A stretch of DNA of 64,000 nucleotides from Candidatus Bathyarchaeota archaeon (lineage in GTDB: Archaea > Thermoproteota > Bathyarchaeia > Bathyarchaeales > Bathycorpusculaceae). This document shows positions 2,416 through 40,112 of this stretch, in pieces (the first letter of the stretch is position 1; each line of letters begins with the position of its first letter). The notes beneath the pieces are model-generated. The model saw only the letters and a list, made by a program, of their open reading frames with translations, searched no databases and had not been told where the DNA came from. The translations under genes and the position numbers were made by a program. The stretch is taken from NCBI GenBank assembly GCA_963770935.1, contig CAVYRJ010000007.1:69105-133104 (forward strand), given 5' to 3'.

Positions 2416-3786
2416 CTACATAGTTTCTAAGATTTGTTTAAGCCTTGAACTGTAGTCTTCCACTAGCTTTAATGCTTTTTCTTGGTTTTTCGCCTCAGCA
2501 TACAATCGGAAAACTGGTTCTGTGCCGCTTGGCCGAATGAGAATAGCGCTGGCGTCGCTAAACCAAATTTTGACTCCGTCTATAGTGCTGACGTTTTCGC
2601 CCTTAACTTGTTCTGAGAGCTTTTGTAGGAGAGGTATCTTTTTGTCGTCTGCGCATTCTATTTTTCCTTTTTCAATAAAATACTGCGGTTGTTCAGCGAC
2701 AAGTTCGGCAAGTGTTTTTCCTGTTTGCGCCATAGTGTTTAGCAGCAGTACAGTTGTCATTGCTCCGTCGCGGACCGCTTGGTGTGGACCGTAGAACACT
2801 CCGCCGTTCTCTTCCCCACCAAGACTGGCGTTCTGTTCCTTCATTTTTTGGGAGACAGTTACGCTTCCAACCTTTGTCCAAATTAAGTCGCCCTTGTATG
2901 CTTCAACAGTGTCTTTGATTAAGGTGGAAGAACTGACCGGAGTTATTATTTTAGCGCCCGGATTCTTGAGCAGGTACTGTTTTATGATTATAGCGAAGGT
3001 TTTGTCTCCCCAATAAATCTCGCCGTTGCCGCCAACAAAGATTGAGCGGTCAGCGTCACCGTCAAATGCTACCCCCATGTCGGCTTTGATTGCTTTTACA
3101 GTTGAAGCCAAATCACCCAAACTTTCGGGACGTGGCTCAGGCAATCTTCCAGGGAAGGTACCGTCGATGTTGGCGTTTATGCTAGTGATTTTGCAGCCGA
3201 GTTCCCTCAATAGCGAGGGCGCAGTTAATCCACCTACGCTGTTTGCGGCATCCACAACCACATGGAAATGAGCGTTTGCAATTTTTGTTTTGTCAACTTG
3301 TTTCTTGATAGCTTGAATGTATTCATCGTTAATTCCAAGCAACTCTCGCTTTGTTCCAAGTTTGTCCCAGGGGGCAAAAACGATTTTATTGTCAAAGTAA
3401 ATGTTCTCTATTTCAACCTCTTGCTCATGTGAGGTTTCGATGCCGTCACCCCAAATAACCTTAATACCGTTGTATTCTGGGGGGTTGTGGGAAGCCGTGA
3501 TGATAACTCCGCCATCCATCTTGTGGTTCTTAACAGCGAACTGCAGGGAAGGTGTTGGTGCCATTCCAGCGAAGAAAACATTGCATCCAGTGGCTGTCAA
3601 TCCAGCAATCACTGCTTTAGCAAACATCGGACCGCTGGTTCTAGCGTCATATCCTAAAAGTAAGTTTTTTTCTTTTCCGAAAAAAGTTCCGATTGAAGTT
3701 CCAATTTTTATGGCCATTTCAGGCGTCAATTCTACGTTGACAAGGCCACGGATTCCGTTTGTTCCAAAAAGCTTTCTTGTACTCAT
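2416..3786 (-). CDS. glmM: Phosphoglucosamine mutase / phosphohexomutase
   Basis: FGTNGIRG, ITASHNP phosphoserine loop, FDGDADR metal loop, GGEENGG, IRPSGTEP. Confidence 0.88.
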   Translation of the reverse strand: MSTRKLFGTNGIRGLVNVELTPEMAIKIGTSIGTFFGKEKNLLLGYDARTSGPMFAKAVIAGLTATGCNVFFAGMAPTPSLQFAVKNHKMDGGVIITASHNPPEYNGIKVIWGDGIETSHEQEVEIENIYFDNKIVFAPWDKLGTKRELLGINDEYIQAIKKQVDKTKIANAHFHVVVDAANSVGGLTAPSLLRELGCKITSINANIDGTFPGRLPEPRPESLGDLASTVKAIKADMGVAFDGDADRSIFVGGNGEIYWGDKTFAIIIKQYLLKNPGAKIITPVSSSTLIKDTVEAYKGDLIWTKVGSVTVSQKMKEQNASLGGEENGGVFYGPHQAVRDGAMTTVLLLNTMAQTGKTLAELVAEQPQYFIEKGKIECADDKKIPLLQKLSEQVKGENVSTIDGVKIWFSDASAILIRPSGTEPVFRLYAEAKNQEKALKLVEDYSSRLKQILETM

Positions 3787-3828: not shown

Positions 3829-4902
3829 TTAAAATGTTTCAGTGACTTCTTTGGCTGGACAAATTACTGAACCATCATGCATGTGAACGCTGTCTTTAAC
3901 TCTGGCAAGGTCGCCAATTACACAGCCCTTGGGAAGTTTGACGCCTTTGCCTATTTTTGCTCCTTCTCCAACGATTGCTCCGTTGAGGATGGCACCGTCG
4001 GCTATTTGAGCTTCTGCAAAGATTACTGAATTGGCAATTTGTGCGTTTGTGCCCACTTTGACGTTTTTGCCCAAGATTGCATATGGGCCTATGACTGATT
4101 TTTCCCCAATTGAGACGCCTTCATCCAAAGCAATGGGGTTCTTTAACTCGAAGGATGCTGGATTTTTTTGTTCAACTTTTTTTGAGATGGCGTCGAGAAC
4201 TATTTTGTTTGCTTCTAAGTACTCTTGTGGCTTGCCAATATCTATCCATAAGCCATTGATGCAGTGGCCGCACAACTTGCCTTCCTCTGCCAACTTGGGA
4301 AAAACTTCTCGTTCCAAAGAAACTGCTCTACCCCCCGGAATATACTCGAAGATTTCTGGACTGAGAACGTAGGCTCCTGCGTTTATTAGGTTGCTTGGTG
4401 CATGCCCTCTGGCTGGTTTCTCAACGAACCGCCTGATTGTGCTGTCGTGTAGGTCTGCAACGCCAAAACTGCACGGATCCTCGACTTTGCAGAGCGCAAT
4501 TGTAGCTAACGCGCCCGTTTTTCTATGGGTCTCAAGCAGTTCTCGATAGTTAATGTCAGCATATATGTCGCCGTTTAGCATGATAAAAGGTTCGTCATGC
4601 CCGATTAGTTTCTCAGCTTTCTTTAGTGGACCACCTGTTCCCAGCGGCATCTTGGGCGGGTCAACGGAAAATCGGACTTTCAGACCACATTTTAACGGTT
4701 TATGTTGACGAATATAGAAACGGGTAAGTGCGTTGACGGCGAGGATGGCTTCGTTTACACCGTTGTTGACTAAACGTTCAAAAGTCCACTGAAGAAGAGG
4801 CTTGTTTACTATAGGAAAAAGAGTTTTCGGCCTAGAACAACTCAGCGGTCGAAGTCTTGTGGCAAAGCCACCCGCTAAAATCAATGCTTTCAGAGATGTC
4901 AC
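3829..4902 (-). CDS. NDP-sugar synthase (mannose-1-phosphate guanylyltransferase-like) with C-terminal hexapeptide repeats
   Basis: ILAGGFATRLRPL, PLGTGG, LNGDI, INAGAY, WIDIGKP; left-handed beta-helix tail. Confidence 0.9.
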   Translation of the reverse strand: MTSLKALILAGGFATRLRPLSCSRPKTLFPIVNKPLLQWTFERLVNNGVNEAILAVNALTRFYIRQHKPLKCGLKVRFSVDPPKMPLGTGGPLKKAEKLIGHDEPFIMLNGDIYADINYRELLETHRKTGALATIALCKVEDPCSFGVADLHDSTIRRFVEKPARGHAPSNLINAGAYVLSPEIFEYIPGGRAVSLEREVFPKLAEEGKLCGHCINGLWIDIGKPQEYLEANKIVLDAISKKVEQKNPASFELKNPIALDEGVSIGEKSVIGPYAILGKNVKVGTNAQIANSVIFAEAQIADGAILNGAIVGEGAKIGKGVKLPKGCVIGDLARVKDSVHMHDGSVICPAKEVTETF

Positions 4903-36821: not shown

Positions 36822-38255
36822 ATGACACAAATGGCAGAAAAGAAAAAAGGCGGATTAAAAGAACTAAGCCCCATACTTATTTACAAGTCCTTGCCAAAAA
36901 CTAACTGCAAAGAATGCGGCGTCGACAATTGCATGGCATTCGCCACAAAGATTGTCAACCGCGAAGTAGAACTTGACAGCTGCAAACCACTCCTCAAACC
37001 AGAAAACGCGAAATCCTACGCTATACTAAAAGATCTCCTAAAACCAGCAGTTAAAGAAATCACTGTCGGCGTCGGCGATAAAGCCAAGAAAATCGGCGGC
37101 AAACTCGTCATGTACCGCCACGAATTCACATACAAGAACCCAACAGCCATCGCAATCGACGTAACCGACGAAATGTCTGATGCTGAAATCGTCTCACGCG
37201 TACAGAAAACAGATAACTTTAATTTCGAATACATTGGCAACCAACTAAAGCTTGACATGATCGCGGTCAGATGCACTTCTGAAGATGCCGACAAATTCAA
37301 GGCAACAGTTAAGAAAGTTTCAGAAACTACCAAATTACCAATGATTTTGTGCACCCTTAACCCAGCAATCGCTGAAGCAGGCCTAATGGCAGCACCAAAA
37401 GCGCGCCCACTTCTTTACGCGGCAACCGCAAGCAACTGGAAAGACATGGCAGAACTCGCACTAATGTACAACTGCCCTATAGTCGCGTCCGCACCAAACG
37501 ACCTGAATACTCTGGTTTCACTCGCAAAAACCCTGATGGCTTACGGCGTAACCGACATAGTCTTAGACCCAGGCACATTCCCAGCTGACGGATTACCTGA
37601 CACAATAAACAACTTTACGATGCTGCGCAGAGCAGCAACCAAAGGCGGCGAAGAACTCGCAGGTTTACCCTTACTCGGTGTACCAATGGTCGCTTGGGTA
37701 GACAAAGGTGACACCGCAGATGACCTGATCAAATGGCGAGAAGCATACATCGCCTCAATGCTGGTTGTCCGCTACGCAGACGTACTCATAATCCACGGCA
37801 ACGACGGATGGTCACTACTACCAACCGCAGTGCTACGTCAAAACATCTACACTGACCCACGCAAACCAGTCGCAGTCGCAGCAGGCCTGAAAGTCTACGG
37901 CACACCCGACGAGAACTCACCAGTACTCTTTACCTCAAACTTTGCATTAACTTTCTACACCGTCGCCTCAGACATCGAAAGCAACAAACTCAACGCTTAC
38001 CTAATCGTGGTTGACACAGAAGGCTCAGCAATCGACAGCGGAGTCGCAGGACGCAAACTCACAGCCGAGCGAGTTGCCGACGCAATCAAAGCATCAGGAA
38101 TAGAGAGCAAAGTCAAGCACAGAAAAATTATCAGCCCAGGCAAAGCCTCACGCATCAGCGGCGAAATCGAAGAACTCAGTGGCTGGAAAGTCCAAGTTGG
38201 ACCAAGAGATAGCAGTGAGATACCTAAGTATCTTATTGAGAAATGGCAACCATAA
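36822..38255 (+). CDS. cdhE: Corrinoid Fe-S protein large (gamma) subunit
   Basis: LPKTNCKECG..NCMAFA...C, IYTDPRKP, TSNFALTFYTV, VGPRDS. Confidence 0.96.
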   Translation: MTQMAEKKKGGLKELSPILIYKSLPKTNCKECGVDNCMAFATKIVNREVELDSCKPLLKPENAKSYAILKDLLKPAVKEITVGVGDKAKKIGGKLVMYRHEFTYKNPTAIAIDVTDEMSDAEIVSRVQKTDNFNFEYIGNQLKLDMIAVRCTSEDADKFKATVKKVSETTKLPMILCTLNPAIAEAGLMAAPKARPLLYAATASNWKDMAELALMYNCPIVASAPNDLNTLVSLAKTLMAYGVTDIVLDPGTFPADGLPDTINNFTMLRRAATKGGEELAGLPLLGVPMVAWVDKGDTADDLIKWREAYIASMLVVRYADVLIIHGNDGWSLLPTAVLRQNIYTDPRKPVAVAAGLKVYGTPDENSPVLFTSNFALTFYTVASDIESNKLNAYLIVVDTEGSAIDSGVAGRKLTAERVADAIKASGIESKVKHRKIISPGKASRISGEIEELSGWKVQVGPRDSSEIPKYLIEKWQP

Positions 38256-38259
38256 GCCA
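38160..38259 (+). repeat. Direct repeat copy 1 (3' end of cdhE)
   Basis: Colinear with 39002-39101; 84 of 100 positions identical by hand count. Confidence 0.9.
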
Positions 38260-38371
38260 TTTTTTCCTTTTTGTTTTTAGCTCCATTATTTTATTAGCTT
38301 CTTTAGAATTCAAGATACCGCCTTCATAAGAGATTTAAGTGCAGAATGAGTCTTAATAGCAATGCTATCTG

Positions 38372-38608
38372 GTGGTTTACATGGAAGAGTTACTTGATAG
38401 GATAACAGTTGATCCTGATGTTCTTGTCGGAAAACCTGTTATTAGAGGAACCCGTGTCCCAGTCTACCTCATCGTTGAGCTTGTAGCTAACGGAATGACA
38501 TCTGAAGAAATACTAAAAGAATACCCGCGGCTAAAAGAGGAAGACATCAAAGCAGCACTAATTTACGCTTCTAAACTCGTAGAAAGCGAAGTTACAGTTG
38601 TACTCTGA
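38372..38608 (+). CDS. DUF433 antitoxin-like protein
   Basis: ITVDPDVLVGKPVIRGTRVPV...YP.L..EDIKAAL.YA. Confidence 0.92.
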   Translation: MVYMEELLDRITVDPDVLVGKPVIRGTRVPVYLIVELVANGMTSEEILKEYPRLKEEDIKAALIYASKLVESEVTVVL

Positions 38609-38625
38609 GAAGAGACAAATGTAAA

Positions 38626-38985
38626 TTGACGCAAACAATAATAGTCGATGAAAATATTCCTGGTAGTGTAACTAAATATCTGAATGCGAGGGGTTTTAAG
38701 ACTCTCAGTATTTGTGATGATTTTCTGAAAAGCGCTAAAGACACAATCATAGCAAATTATGCGGCTGAAAAAGGAATGCAAGTGTTAACTTTAGATTCTG
38801 ACTTTTCCCAGCTATATCATAACCTCTTCAGAGGCAGAATCACCGTTTTATTGGTAAAAGCAAACCCTGCGACCGCCGAAAACATAATCAGAATTCTGGA
38901 TGTAGCCTTAGAGAAAATAAGAAAGACTGAAACTCAAAATAAGCTTCTAATAATCACAAAAAAGAGGATCAGAATAATCTCTTAA
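38626..38985 (+). CDS. DUF5615 PIN-like toxin
   Basis: IVDENI, AKD..I...A, LTLDSDF; usual partner of DUF433. Confidence 0.88.
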   Translation: MTQTIIVDENIPGSVTKYLNARGFKTLSICDDFLKSAKDTIIANYAAEKGMQVLTLDSDFSQLYHNLFRGRITVLLVKANPATAENIIRILDVALEKIRKTETQNKLLIITKKRIRIIS

Positions 38986-39001
38986 TTCAATTTATTACTG
39001 G

Positions 39002-39101
39002 GGAGAAATTGAAGAACTCGGTGGCTGGAAAGTTTAAGTTGAACAATGCGACAGCAGCGAGATACCTAAATATCTCATAGAGAAAAGGCAACCATTAGCC
39101 A
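39002..39101 (+). repeat. Direct repeat copy 2 (degenerate cdhE 3' end)
   Basis: Translates GEIEELGGWKV*VEQCDSSEIPKYLIEKRQP versus cdhE GEIEELSGWKVQVGPRDSSEIPKYLIEKWQP. Confidence 0.9.
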
Positions 39102-39173
39102 CCCCCTCTTCTTATTTTGCTTTTTTAATTTTATTTTTGCAAACCATTTTTTGATCAAGATATCAAAATAAGG

Positions 39174-39413
39174 TCAATATTTTCCCATGACTTTTCTAAC
39201 AGCGATTTCAATGTCTTCAGTTTTAATTGTTTTTCTTCCTGCATATGTAGCATAGTCCAATGCTTCTTTTGCAATCTTTAAGCCAATTTTCCCAAGAACT
39301 CTTCCAAGCTCGTGCGCTGCTGCTTCACTTACCCTGTCTGCTCCAGCTTTCTCACATAATCTATGCATTGGAGCTAAGGCTATTTCTAATTCGTTCATTT
39401 GAGCTTTCTTCAC
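39174..39413 (-). CDS. Archaeal histone (HMf-like fold)
   Basis: LAPMHRL..KAGADRVSE.A, A.YAGRKTIKTEDIEIA. Confidence 0.92.
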   Translation of the reverse strand: MKKAQMNELEIALAPMHRLCEKAGADRVSEAAAHELGRVLGKIGLKIAKEALDYATYAGRKTIKTEDIEIAVRKVMGKY

Positions 39414-39470
39414 AGTCTCTTTTAATTTTTAAGACAATATTAAGCTTTGTTATCTTTTCCGCCGTTCTGT

Positions 39471-39484
39471 AGCAAATTATAAAT
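39471..39484 (+). promoter_or_regulatory. BRE/TATA-like promoter for the small Lys-rich ORF
   Basis: AGCAAA followed by TTATAAAT, about 25-30 nt upstream of the SD-containing segment at 39510. Confidence 0.55.
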
Positions 39485-39523
39485 ACAAATTGCTGTCATA
39501 CATAAAATCCCGAGGTTATTTTG

Positions 39524-39580
39524 ATGGCGAAGAAACCAGCTAAAAAAGTAGTAAAGAAAGCCCCGGCAAAGAAAAAGTAA
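39524..39580 (+). CDS. 18-aa Lys/Ala/Pro-rich peptide MAKKPAKKVVKKAPAKKK (not in the ORF track)
   Basis: ATG 39524 to TAA 39580, SD GAGGT at 39512-39516, upstream TATA, downstream T-rich tract; 9 of 18 residues are Lys. Confidence 0.7.
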   Translation: MAKKPAKKVVKKAPAKKK

Positions 39581-39603
39581 AACCTCGGCGTAAGCACATT
39601 CAC

Positions 39604-39621
39604 TTCTCTTTTTTTCTTTTT
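39604..39621 (+). terminator. T-rich archaeal-type terminator after the small ORF
   Basis: TTCTCTTTTTTTTCTTTTT-type pyrimidine tract about 25 nt after the stop codon. Confidence 0.45.
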
Positions 39622-39710
39622 CTAAAATTGTGAGTTCTGAGTTCACCAATTTGTCCGGGTTAAGTAATTCTTTTATAATTCGCTAAATTACTAGGATTTG
39701 GTGATTTTTA

Positions 39711-40112
39711 GTGGATCATACAATTGTACATTTTGAAATCCCGGCTAACGATATTGAAAAATTGAAGAAATTTTATATGGATTTGTTTGGCTGGACTATG
39801 AATAAGTATCCTGGACCAACAGTCTACTATCTCGTGGGAACTGTTCCCGTGGACGAAAAAACAATGATGCCGATTCGTCCAGGCGTCAACGGCGGACTAT
39901 ATGAGAAGAAGGATGCTTCAATGCCCGAGATGGCTAAGCCAATAAACTACGTTTCAGTAGAGTCAGTCGAGGAATATAGCAAGAAGGTTGAAGCGTTAGG
40001 CGGCAAAATCATCCAACAGAAAATGGAGATCCCAGGCTTGGGTTGGTGGGCGCTTGCGCTTGACCCAGACGGCAACGCCTTTGGCATGTTGGAGTATATG
40101 CAAAAAACCTAA
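39711..40112 (+). CDS. VOC/glyoxalase family protein
   Basis: IVHFEIPA, KFY..LFGW, GVNGG, VEALGGKI, DPDGNAFG. Confidence 0.92.
   Translation: MDHTIVHFEIPANDIEKLKKFYMDLFGWTMNKYPGPTVYYLVGTVPVDEKTMMPIRPGVNGGLYEKKDASMPEMAKPINYVSVESVEEYSKKVEALGGKIIQQKMEIPGLGWWALALDPDGNAFGMLEYMQKT

Follow-up and report, generated by a model that had tools for sequence, protein, structure and literature searches.

How does an intact gene come to be followed by a second, decaying copy of its own end? In the window analysed here (the whole stretch of 64,000 nucleotides of archaeal DNA), cdhE is followed by two small genes and then by just such a copy. The earlier note on this DNA suggested that an element had integrated into the 3' end of cdhE while bringing a replacement end from another allele, and had then shrunk to a toxin-antitoxin (TA) module. 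Based on our analysis, the insertion and the replacement end are well founded, and the shrunken element is not. In our opinion it is fairly probable that a TA cassette carrying its own cdhE end was inserted by a single crossover (Campbell-type), and that filled and empty alleles then spread by homologous recombination.

The repeat and the genes between its copies

The gene itself is undamaged. cdhE (36822..38255, forward strand) is an intact open reading frame of 477 aa for the gamma subunit of acetyl-CoA decarbonylase/synthase (ACDS). It has the Pfam FeS and CdhD domains (PF04060 and PF03599), scores 581.9 bits against the NCBIfam equivalog model NF003195 (cut-off 306), and occupies the position expected for CdhE, with cdhD (TIGR00381, 447.8 bits) upstream in the cdh operon. 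Local alignment and a repeat search place the direct repeat at 38160-38259 and 39002-39101, 842 nt from start to start, with 84 of 100 positions matching and no gaps; this agrees with the 16 mismatches previously claimed for the last 100 nt of the gene. The two copies are the sole matches in the whole 1.98-Mb genome (E 6.5e-47 for copy 1 and 3.1e-25 for copy 2), hence the repeat is not a product of chance.

Copy 1, the working end of cdhE, is attL-like and is assigned to 38146..38259 (forward strand). The part recognisable here against copy 2, 38160-38259, consists of the final 96 nt of cdhE with the stop codon, followed by 4 nt (GCCA). In the better-preserved copies of three other genomes (G013, G099 and G004) homology starts 12-14 nt further upstream, which corresponds to about 38146 in the window. 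In G023 it seemingly extends some 20-30 nt beyond the stop into the T-rich terminator, a kind of sequence in which such an extension is hard to judge. Copy 2 (39002..39101, forward strand) is attR-like and, judging from the alignment and the codon comparison, is a native-type cdhE end that has been displaced and is decaying. Codon by codon, 15 codons differ through 16 nucleotides. Eight of these codons are synonymous, exactly the eight that had been listed before, and the reported change of CAA to TAA is indeed in frame, at 39035-39037. The remaining changes in copy 2 are of the non-synonymous type: S to G, G to E, P to Q, R to C (two nucleotides), W to R (AGG, 39086-39088) and stop to Leu (TTA, 39095-39097). 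The A at 39086 is private to the genome of the window, the conspecifics L086 and L087 having T. The T-rich terminator flank after copy 2 (39102..39139, forward strand) resembles the flank that follows cdhE in sister species without a cassette; it is identical to theirs at 36-38 of 41-45 positions, against 30-33 of 37-41 for the flank of copy 1, which in low-complexity sequence is modest evidence.

Between the copies there are two open reading frames only, and they match DUF433 (PF04255) and DUF5615 (PF18480), the pair that had been stated. They are preceded by a leader (38260..38380, forward strand), recognised by alignment downstream of the primary stop; this type A upstream region, a probable promoter, is common to the TA cassettes of G021, G023, G099, G109, G111 and G126. 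The DUF433 antitoxin (38381..38608, forward strand; 75 aa, MEELLDRI...) matches PF04255 with E 1.6e-26 and 92.3 bits against a cut-off of 23.6. Its orthologues begin at MEELL, and an alternative GTG start lies at 38372. The DUF5615 PIN-like toxin (38626..38985, forward strand; 119 aa) has a TTG start, likewise found in G004 and G023, and matches PF18480 above the cut-off (E 4.9e-17, 62.2 bits); its match to PIN_10, 24.5 bits, is under the cut-off of 26.2. As read from the sequence, its acidic residues are D8/E9 and D57/D59 (in VDEN and TLDSDF). The two small genes are co-oriented, antitoxin first, with a gap of 17 nt, the layout of a type II VapBC-like pair, and we regard them as a predicted VapBC-type PIN/DUF433 toxin-antitoxin. 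With dN/dS of 0.07-0.13 for the antitoxin and 0.12-0.20 for the toxin, the pair is, to judge by substitutions, evolving under purifying selection and now and then inactivated: in the conspecific L087 the toxin has lost its start, and G013 and G021 have a broken toxin. Its maintenance is probably due to selection of the addiction or defence type. PIN-COG2442 (DUF433) pairs of VapBC type have been described (Makarova et al. 2009, PMC2701414), including VapBC10 of Synechocystis (PMC3834315). They share with the present pair the compact two-gene operon and the DUF433 antitoxin upstream of a PIN-like toxin; within the PIN-like domains, the predicted toxin of the window differs from theirs in being of the DUF5615 branch.

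Two other kinds of target or insertion can be set aside. An RNA gene as the target is rejected, since a search of 37900-39800 against Rfam gave one sub-threshold snoRNA match (18 bits against 50) and there is no tRNA near the site. A casposon or transposon is rejected because the cassette has no terminal inverted repeats and because a repeat of at least 100 nt is too long for a short target duplication.

Further to the right lies a separate insert, outside the TA cassette (39140..39667), with a histone gene (39174-39413, reverse strand) and a Lys-rich micro-ORF of 18 aa (39525-39581). It is absent between cdhE and the glyoxalase gene in G001, G012, G023 and L085. In L079 this insert is 95-97% identical, whereas the TA there is just 83% identical.

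Empty sites and the origin of the two ends

Empty sites show directly that, as the earlier note proposed, the TA pair was inserted at the 3' end of cdhE. At these sites the native right-hand neighbour of cdhE is a glyoxalase-family gene (assigned by Pfam), which in the window is found at 39711..40112 on the forward strand. It comes directly after cdhE in the sister species G001, G012, G016 and G020. The site is also empty within the species: on the conspecific metagenome contig L085 the cdhE stop is followed by about 100 nt and then by the glyoxalase gene, and TA pair, second copy and histone gene are all absent. Sample JGI 3300056968 has this empty haplotype, and the species is also present in 3300061209, 3300061641 and ENA ERZ25039459. 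The distance from the cdhE stop to the glyoxalase gene is about 100 nt in G001 and G012 as well, and about 150-190 nt in G020 and G016. If relatives without the TA pair had kept the second copy, the insertion would be in doubt; the second cdhE end is retained at none of the empty sites, either of the sister species or of the conspecific contig.

The conspecific contig further permits a comparison of alleles. The CdhE protein of L085 is identical to that of the window and the DNA is 99% identical (0.9% difference) up to the repeat. There are 13 differences over the preceding ~1380 nt, and then 8 in 33 nt, all of them synonymous and including a serine codon that is AGT in one and TCA in the other. 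This patch (38204..38236, forward strand) lies inside copy 1 and marks a switch of allele; the recombination breakpoint is placed between 38129 and 38204. Hence the working end of cdhE in the window is not the end of L085, which bears out the idea of a replacement end from another allele. Among filled conspecifics the islet is less divergent (0.37%) than its flanks (0.87% and 2.8%). These comparisons are best read as follows: in the species of the window, sites with and without the cassette now segregate as alleles, these are exchanged through homologous recombination, and the left breakpoint of the exchange falls within the repeat. Exact-protein look-ups of the glyoxalase and the histone for the right-hand breakpoint of the empty haplotype gave no match. 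The end of L085 also differs from copy 2, so that the insertion event did not take place in the background of that empty haplotype. Nor is the insertion recent in this species, given about 10 pseudogene-type changes in copy 2.

Did the two copies diverge as working ends of different alleles, or are they duplicates of one resident end? The latter would follow from a strict long target duplication, or from a local tandem duplication that was later hit by the TA. The window alone does not speak against such an origin. The earlier claim that both copies were once under coding constraint relied on the synonymous differences in the window, and these are insufficient for the purpose: 8 of the 15 differing codons are synonymous, where 36-40% would be expected if copy 1 were constrained and copy 2 neutral (P = 0.21). 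Polarisation with relatives assigns about 10-11 of the 16 changes to copy 2 as derived, with a neutral-type spectrum. Thus, by this polarisation, most of the differences between the copies in the window itself are neutral-type decay of copy 2, and the pattern fits a duplication followed by decay as well. Furthermore, both copies have T at the third position of a Ser/Gly codon (AGT against GGT), where most relatives have AGC, and the footprint of a target duplication is documented for restriction-modification genes (PMC2853133).

The claim of constraint does stand on the other genomes. There, copy 1 and copy 2 differ by 48 synonymous to 10 non-synonymous codons, against the expectation for one neutral copy (P = 3e-11), which requires divergence as working gene ends and indicates that in these genomes the two copies come from different functional alleles. 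A duplication of one end also sits badly with the comparison between copy 1 and the empty conspecific allele, where 8 synonymous differences in 33 nt stand against 0.9% upstream. In addition, copy 2 is nearer to ends of other species than to copy 1. Judged by difference counts on the 100-nt ends together with the conspecific comparison, it has 12-13 differences from the native-type ends of sister species and 16 from copy 1. In its last 56 nt the counts are 4 and 9, respectively. The nearest of all are the primary ends of G011 and G126. Finally, tandem ends without a cassette occur in none of the 120 genomes of the genus census described below. We therefore consider an origin of both copies from one resident end very unlikely. 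Gene conversion between the copies is rejected as a source of the synonymous pattern, because conversion would erase differences and not make synonymous ones.

Recurrence in the genus and the route of insertion

The arrangement is not confined to one species. Our census covered 120 congeneric genomes, all of them MAGs, one per species. In these genomes second cdhE ends are partial and occur nowhere but beside a cassette, at a distance of 0.7-1.3 kb downstream from the primary end. The cassette is either the DUF433/DUF5615 TA pair or a 359-aa archaeal ATPase (PF01637). The TA pair stands at the cdhE site in 14 genomes, with a recognisable second cdhE end in 9 of them, and the ATPase is followed by a second cdhE end in G013, G053, G062 and G132. 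In G013 there is a tandem array, in the order cdhE, ATPase, cdhE', TA, cdhE''. Toxin orthologues of at least 65% identity, whether in genomes of the genus, metagenome contigs or GTDB contigs, are every one of them at a cdhE end. The left boundaries of the two cassette types are about 11 nt apart (-14 and -25). Such near-coincidence may point to a site that is preferred, and thereby to a possible recombinase acting in trans. The ATPase has a C-terminal winged helix, and its cassette is bracketed by a hairpin motif specific to the locus, ACTTAYNGGNNNTAAGT. This motif may be an operator or, more speculatively, a dedicated second signal for recombination. This motif is absent from the window and from its genome, hence it is no part of the TA cassette there.

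If cassettes recur, they may have been inherited from a single old insertion in the genus ancestor, followed by vertical descent and many losses through recombination between the copies, the cassette being immobile today. Divergence of TA orthologues (dS 0.5-0.8) is indeed of the same order as that of host genes (0.5-1.1), so that much of the distribution could reflect old vertical inheritance with repeated loss. The TA is invariably at one site, some of its groupings match the host tree (G069 with G024), and deletion is favoured by direct repeats as long as 100 nt. The phylogeny of the TA is star-like and poorly supported, and TA and host distances are uncorrelated (Mantel r = 0.14, P = 0.17). 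Tree and Mantel result are together compatible with vertical or horizontal inheritance, although the lack of correlation is not what descent from one insertion would predict. In the cdhDE tree, genomes with the TA are scattered among 6 clades or more. What makes a single ancient insertion improbable, in our opinion, is the very uneven decay of the second copy, which is nil in G004 and G062 and heavy in G021, G023, G053 and G069. In G004 the copies differ by 6 synonymous and 0 non-synonymous changes, and the flank of the second copy matches the one native to its sister G019 at 142 of 148 positions, although the TA of G004 is at dS 0.57-0.84 to those of G000 and G023. A pseudogene of such an age should be unrecognisable. 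The second cassette type with its own boundary, the tandem array in G013, and an islet younger than its flanks among filled conspecifics point in the same direction.

The earlier note preferred another source, namely an element that integrated at the 3' end of cdhE and then shrank to its TA. Spelled out, this would be a larger integrase-bearing provirus, plasmid or island that used the gene end as attP, integrated site-specifically and decayed until its addictive TA was left. Tyrosine integrases classically leave direct repeats made from the 3' end of a gene, together with a replacement allele (as in e14/icd and in 14 of 68 thaumarchaeal elements, PMC6563490). A tandem array at one site, as in G013, is typical of such elements, the near-coincident boundaries suggest a defined site, and the genome contains five PF00589 matches that could act in trans. 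However, none of these five is on contig C7, and in the window neither the open reading frames nor a profile search revealed an integrase between the repeats. The cassette thus has no recombinase of its own. The same is seen in at least 13 repeat-bearing genomes: the interval between the copies contains no integrase, whole or fragmentary, and no other gene of an element. A search of the relatives for larger islands, which the note had recommended, found neither island nor integrase at the cdhE site in the 120 genomes, and no second copy more than 1.3 kb from the primary end. Searches of viral contigs (IMG/VR) with two degenerate cdhE-end patterns, a double hairpin motif and the toxin protein returned no match. 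Each insert is a single gene or operon, the toxin stop being separated from the repeat by 17-20 nt, and the same minimal cassette occurs in at least 17 lineages. Identical shrinkage in many lineages and with two unrelated cargos is hard to accept, hence we regard decay from an integrase-bearing element as quite improbable. An integron is rejected as well: besides the lack of PF00589 on contig C7, the flanks are the cdh operon and glyoxalase/purF, and the cassettes end in a cdhE fragment (in this comparison attC-type ends were judged by eye only).

Returning to insertion by a single crossover, the reading that we favour, the events could be as follows. A copy of the cdhE end, about 110-145 nt long, would travel with the two-gene TA cassette. 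A single Campbell-type crossover between the chromosomal cdhE end and the carried end would then add the cassette, giving the order cdhE with a cassette-linked replacement end (copy 1), cassette, and displaced older end (copy 2). cdhE is left intact, and copy 2 is now decaying. The catalyst is most likely host homologous recombination on the carried gene end, and possibly a recombinase acting in trans. It is tempting to speculate further that the terminal ~110-145 nt of cdhE are a portable homing arm for recombinase-free mini-cassettes, each of which pops in, displaces the resident end and stacks in tandem. The cargos would then be the TA pair, the STAND-like ATPase and perhaps the histone/micro-protein pair. 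We offer this extension tentatively and think it rather doubtful. If true, the cdhE terminus of this genus of Bathyarchaeia would be an integron-like loading platform without an integrase.

Comparison with known systems

The locus provides an archaeal example, with a conspecific empty site, of an addictive or defence cassette loaded beside an essential gene without damage to it and without a recombinase of its own. The layout recurs, with two different cargos and once as a tandem array, in over a dozen species, which makes the route of insertion testable. For annotation, a short orphan copy of a gene end is a useful sign of an insertion of this kind. Core genes can have mosaic 3' ends, which matters for the use of cdh genes as phylogenetic markers.

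The footprint at cdhE is already known from two systems. In Escherichia coli the element e14 and phage 21 integrate into icd, leaving icd together with a displaced icd 3' pseudogene; both are prophages of 15-40 kb with their own integrase. The parallel is close: the target belongs to central metabolism, the replacement 3' end is mainly synonymous, the displaced native end lies downstream, and the gene remains functional, restored by att-type direct repeats derived from its 3' end, with an empty site in relatives. Unlike these prophages, the insert at cdhE is 0.74 kb and has no recombinase, and no larger form is found in the 120 genomes. The second system is the insertion of restriction-modification gene complexes with long target duplication (Nobusato et al. 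2000, Gene 259:99; Furuta et al. 2010, PMC2853133). There too a compact addictive or defence complex without mobility genes is flanked by direct repeats of more than 30 bp that are single at the empty site. The differences are that the cargo here is a TA pair or a STAND-like ATPase, that the host is archaeal (the screen in PMC2853133 retained no case from archaea), that the cdhE copies are different alleles and not duplicates of one target, and that two types of cassette have used the cdhE site, in many species.

As for the site, the note considered a core metabolic gene unusual as a place of integration. This was overstated, since 14 of 68 integrated elements of Thaumarchaeota are in the 3'-distal part of protein genes (2019, PMC6563490). 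Those elements, from a related phylum, likewise target gene 3' ends, reuse sites in tandem and were recognised by comparing empty and occupied sites in relatives, but they either bring an integrase or belong to the casposons, and they have short att sites, whereas the cdhE repeat has 110-145 nt and no integrase. Because its integrase-free scar recurs in many related species, we view cdhE as a clear, but not unprecedented, case of selfish cassettes loading beside essential genes.

The second cdhE end and empty sites

In the window, which is C7:69105-133104 of a MAG of 1.98 Mb, cdhE (36822-38255; NF003195, ACDS gamma subunit, 581.9 bits, with FeS and CdhD domains) follows cdhD within the cdhA-B-C-D-E operon. 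Behind it come a DUF433 ORF (38381-38608), a DUF5615/PIN-like ORF (38626-38985), a second cdhE end (copy 2, 39002-39101), a histone gene on the minus strand, a micro-ORF and a glyoxalase-family gene, and next purF and purD. The earlier note had described a duplicated cdhE end around this toxin-antitoxin (TA) pair, and this is indeed what we find: the working end (copy 1, 38160-38259) and copy 2 match at 84 of 100 positions without gaps, and the repeat pair is unique in the genome (copy 2, E 3e-25). The note's eight synonymous differences and its CAA to TAA change are also correct on codon comparison of both copies; the remaining changes from copy 1 to copy 2 are S to G, G to E, P to Q, R to C, W to R and stop to Leu.

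The gene order cdhD-cdhE-(glyoxalase)-purF-purD is kept across the genus, and the empty sites that the note proposed to look for in relatives do exist. The glyoxalase gene starts ~100 nt past the cdhE stop in the congeneric genomes G001 and G012 and ~150-190 nt past it in G020 and G016, and in all four the TA pair, the second copy and the histone gene are absent between the two genes. The best control, being conspecific, is metagenome contig L085, which runs from the cdhE stop straight to glyoxalase; its CdhE protein is identical to that of the window, with 13 differences in about 1380 nt upstream. Conspecific contigs L084, L086 (783 kb) and L087-L090 have the filled arrangement.

A DNA search of the 120 genus genomes found the cdhE end in 111, and partial second copies in G000 (the window's genome), G004, G013 (two), G021, G023, G051, G053, G062, G069, G099, G126 and G132, with G044 rearranged. 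Without exception these stand 0.7-1.3 kb past the primary end, and every one is accompanied by a cassette. Therefore the second copy is not retained in cassette-less relatives among the 120 genomes; retention in relatives without the TA pair is what the note had expected to speak against its model.

Are the two copies different alleles?

The window alone gives a weak answer. Of changes made at random in the 32 codons, 22% are synonymous, and with copy 1 constrained and copy 2 neutral, 36-40% of differing codons are expected to be synonymous; the observed share is 8 of 15 (P = 0.21). Polarised by relatives, about 10-11 changes fall on copy 2, 3-4 of them synonymous in type, and this pattern is ordinary pseudogene decay. 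Thus the note's statement that both copies were once constrained does not follow from the window's own counts. In other genomes the copies differ at 48 synonymous versus 10 non-synonymous codons (P = 3e-11; 6:0 in G004, 11:1 in G062, 8:1 and 6:1 in G013, 8:2 in G099, 4:2 in G132, 4:2 in G051, 1:1 in G126). Further, when the working end in the window is set against the empty haplotype L085, 8 synonymous differences fall in 38204-38236 (codon pairs CGA/AGA, GAC/GAT, TCA/AGT, CCA/CCT, CTC/CTT and ATA/ATT), as against 0.9% upstream, which indicates a recombination breakpoint within the repeat, between 38129 and 38204. Copy 2 also resembles the G126 and G011 primary ends more closely than it does copy 1: it differs from those ends at 12-13 positions, with 4 in the last 56 nt, and from copy 1 at 16, with 9 in that stretch. 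The T-rich flank of copy 2 is similar to the native flank of sister species, and the second-copy flank of G004 is identical to the native flank of its sister G019 at 142 of 148 positions. The codon counts, the L085 switch, and the affinity and flank of copy 2 all support an origin from different alleles.

Cassette types, age and a flexible islet

The TA, assigned to the predicted PIN-COG2442 VapBC class (PMC2701414, PMC3834315), occupies the cdhE-end site in 14 genomes: as a pair in G000, G004, G013, G021, G023, G051, G069, G099, G109, G111 and G126, and as antitoxin alone in G024, G044 and G078. It is also found on four metagenome contigs, each time at a cdhE end. DUF5615 toxin paralogues (40-50% identity) are common at other loci across the genus; the window's genome has a decayed one (G000:C17:76237-76533, 42% identity, one in-frame TAA). 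In G013, G053, G062 and G132 a cdhE end copy comes after a second type of cassette, a PF01637 archaeal ATPase of 359 aa that has a winged helix at its C-terminus; the order in G013 is cdhE, ATPase, cdhE', TA, cdhE''.

The TA is, to judge by its dN/dS (0.07-0.2, with dS between orthologues of 0.5-0.8), under purifying selection; for cdhE, dS to the closest species is 0.52. In the cdhD+E tree TA-bearing genomes fall into at least 6 clades among cassette-less genomes. The TA's own tree has a star-like shape, and distances between TAs do not follow those between hosts (r = 0.14, P = 0.17). Second copies are intact in G004 and G062 and nearly erased in G021, G023, G053 and G069. Intact copies beside cassettes at dS 0.57-0.84 from the G000 and G023 TAs, the ones compared, are not explicable by one ancient insertion. 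We therefore infer repeated insertions, each displacing an end functional at the time, plus losses.

Within the window's species the insertion is old relative to strain divergence, since some 10 derived changes have built up in copy 2 and the empty haplotype has a different end. Filled conspecifics diverge by 0.37% in the islet 38070-39690, as against 0.87% in cdhE upstream and 2.8% in glyoxalase-purF, so the filled and the empty state now act as alleles that homologous recombination moves. Decay is still going on: 39086 A (W to R) is private to the window's genome, in conspecific L087 the toxin start at window 38628 is TTA instead of TTG with no 119-aa toxin ORF called, and on another conspecific contig, too, no toxin gene is called. 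Inactivation of the toxin is thus under way in the population.

The cdhE-glyoxalase/purF interval is a small flexible islet with other occupants. The histone gene and 18-aa Lys-rich micro-ORF (39140-39667) form a further insert, which G001, G012, G023 and L085 lack between cdhE and glyoxalase. Its identity to the window is 95-97% in metagenome contig L079, where the adjoining TA reaches only 83%, which suggests that the two genes are exchanged separately, as a cassette of their own. The interval also holds, 3' of cdhE in G007, G008, G014, G015 and G090, a flavodoxin-like gene (PF12682, 160 aa), again a variable occupant. In G002 (L036, oriented downstream stretch) a glyoxalase C-terminal fragment (3579-3758) precedes the full gene (3965-4360), beyond a P-type-ATPase-like insert of 924 aa that lies 3' of cdhE, another orphan gene-end copy next to an insert. 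G135:C5 (L063) has cdhE-glyoxalase-purF-purD twice, inverted, within about 16 kb of one contig; this may reflect a true inverted duplication or an error of assembly.

A palindromic motif, ACTTAYNGGNNNTAAGT (6-bp stem, 5-nt loop), is not in the window. It occurs at G013/L038, G053/L058, G062/L052, G132/L053, G007/L039, G078/L076, G090/L093, G004/L042, G051/L057, G044/L059 and G016/L045. Two tandem copies stand immediately 5' of the PF01637 ATPase start codon, as they do in front of some TA cassettes, and 1.5-2.5 copies immediately past the ATPase stop, the TAA lying inside the first half-motif. The 120 genomes hold 35 exact matches, about 26 of them at most 1.6 kb downstream of cdhE, and elsewhere matches are at chance level. 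The motif may serve as an operator or in recombination.

Route of insertion and known systems

The locus reads A-R-cassette-R'-B, where R and R' come from different alleles and R' runs on into native DNA. A single crossover yields just this arrangement when a circle (R + cassette) recombines with R in the chromosome. Such a circle can form when the two copies in a donor recombine, and integration would then need no more than about 110-145 bp of DNA at 85-95% identity. This route would account for three features: no integrase, strict restriction to one site, and stacking in tandem. No insert examined contains an integrase or other mobility gene, contig C7, which holds the window, has no integrase, and no trace turned up in viral contigs. 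The note's model is supported in part: the insertion with a replacement allele stands, and the decayed integrase element does not. There is a hint that, alternatively, a tyrosine recombinase acting in trans may have been the catalyst, since the two cassette types have near-coincident boundaries: the left limit of homology is at about -14 nt (window 38146) for TA and about -25 to -30 nt for the ATPase. The single crossover, in our opinion, offers a testable recombinase-free route, and the value of the locus lies in this together with the conspecific empty site and the recurrence across the genus with two cargos.

The footprint is the same as that of e14/phage 21 at icd, elements which carry their own integrase. 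It is also that of the restriction-modification 'insertion with long target duplication' (PMC2853133, citing Nobusato 2000), for which no archaeal case was found and in which the target itself has been duplicated to give the repeats (PMC2853133). The note had considered such a site unusual. We disagree: in Thaumarchaeota 14 of 68 integrated elements lie in 3'-distal parts of protein genes (PMC6563490), and with such targets common there, a protein-gene target is not unusual in this phylum.
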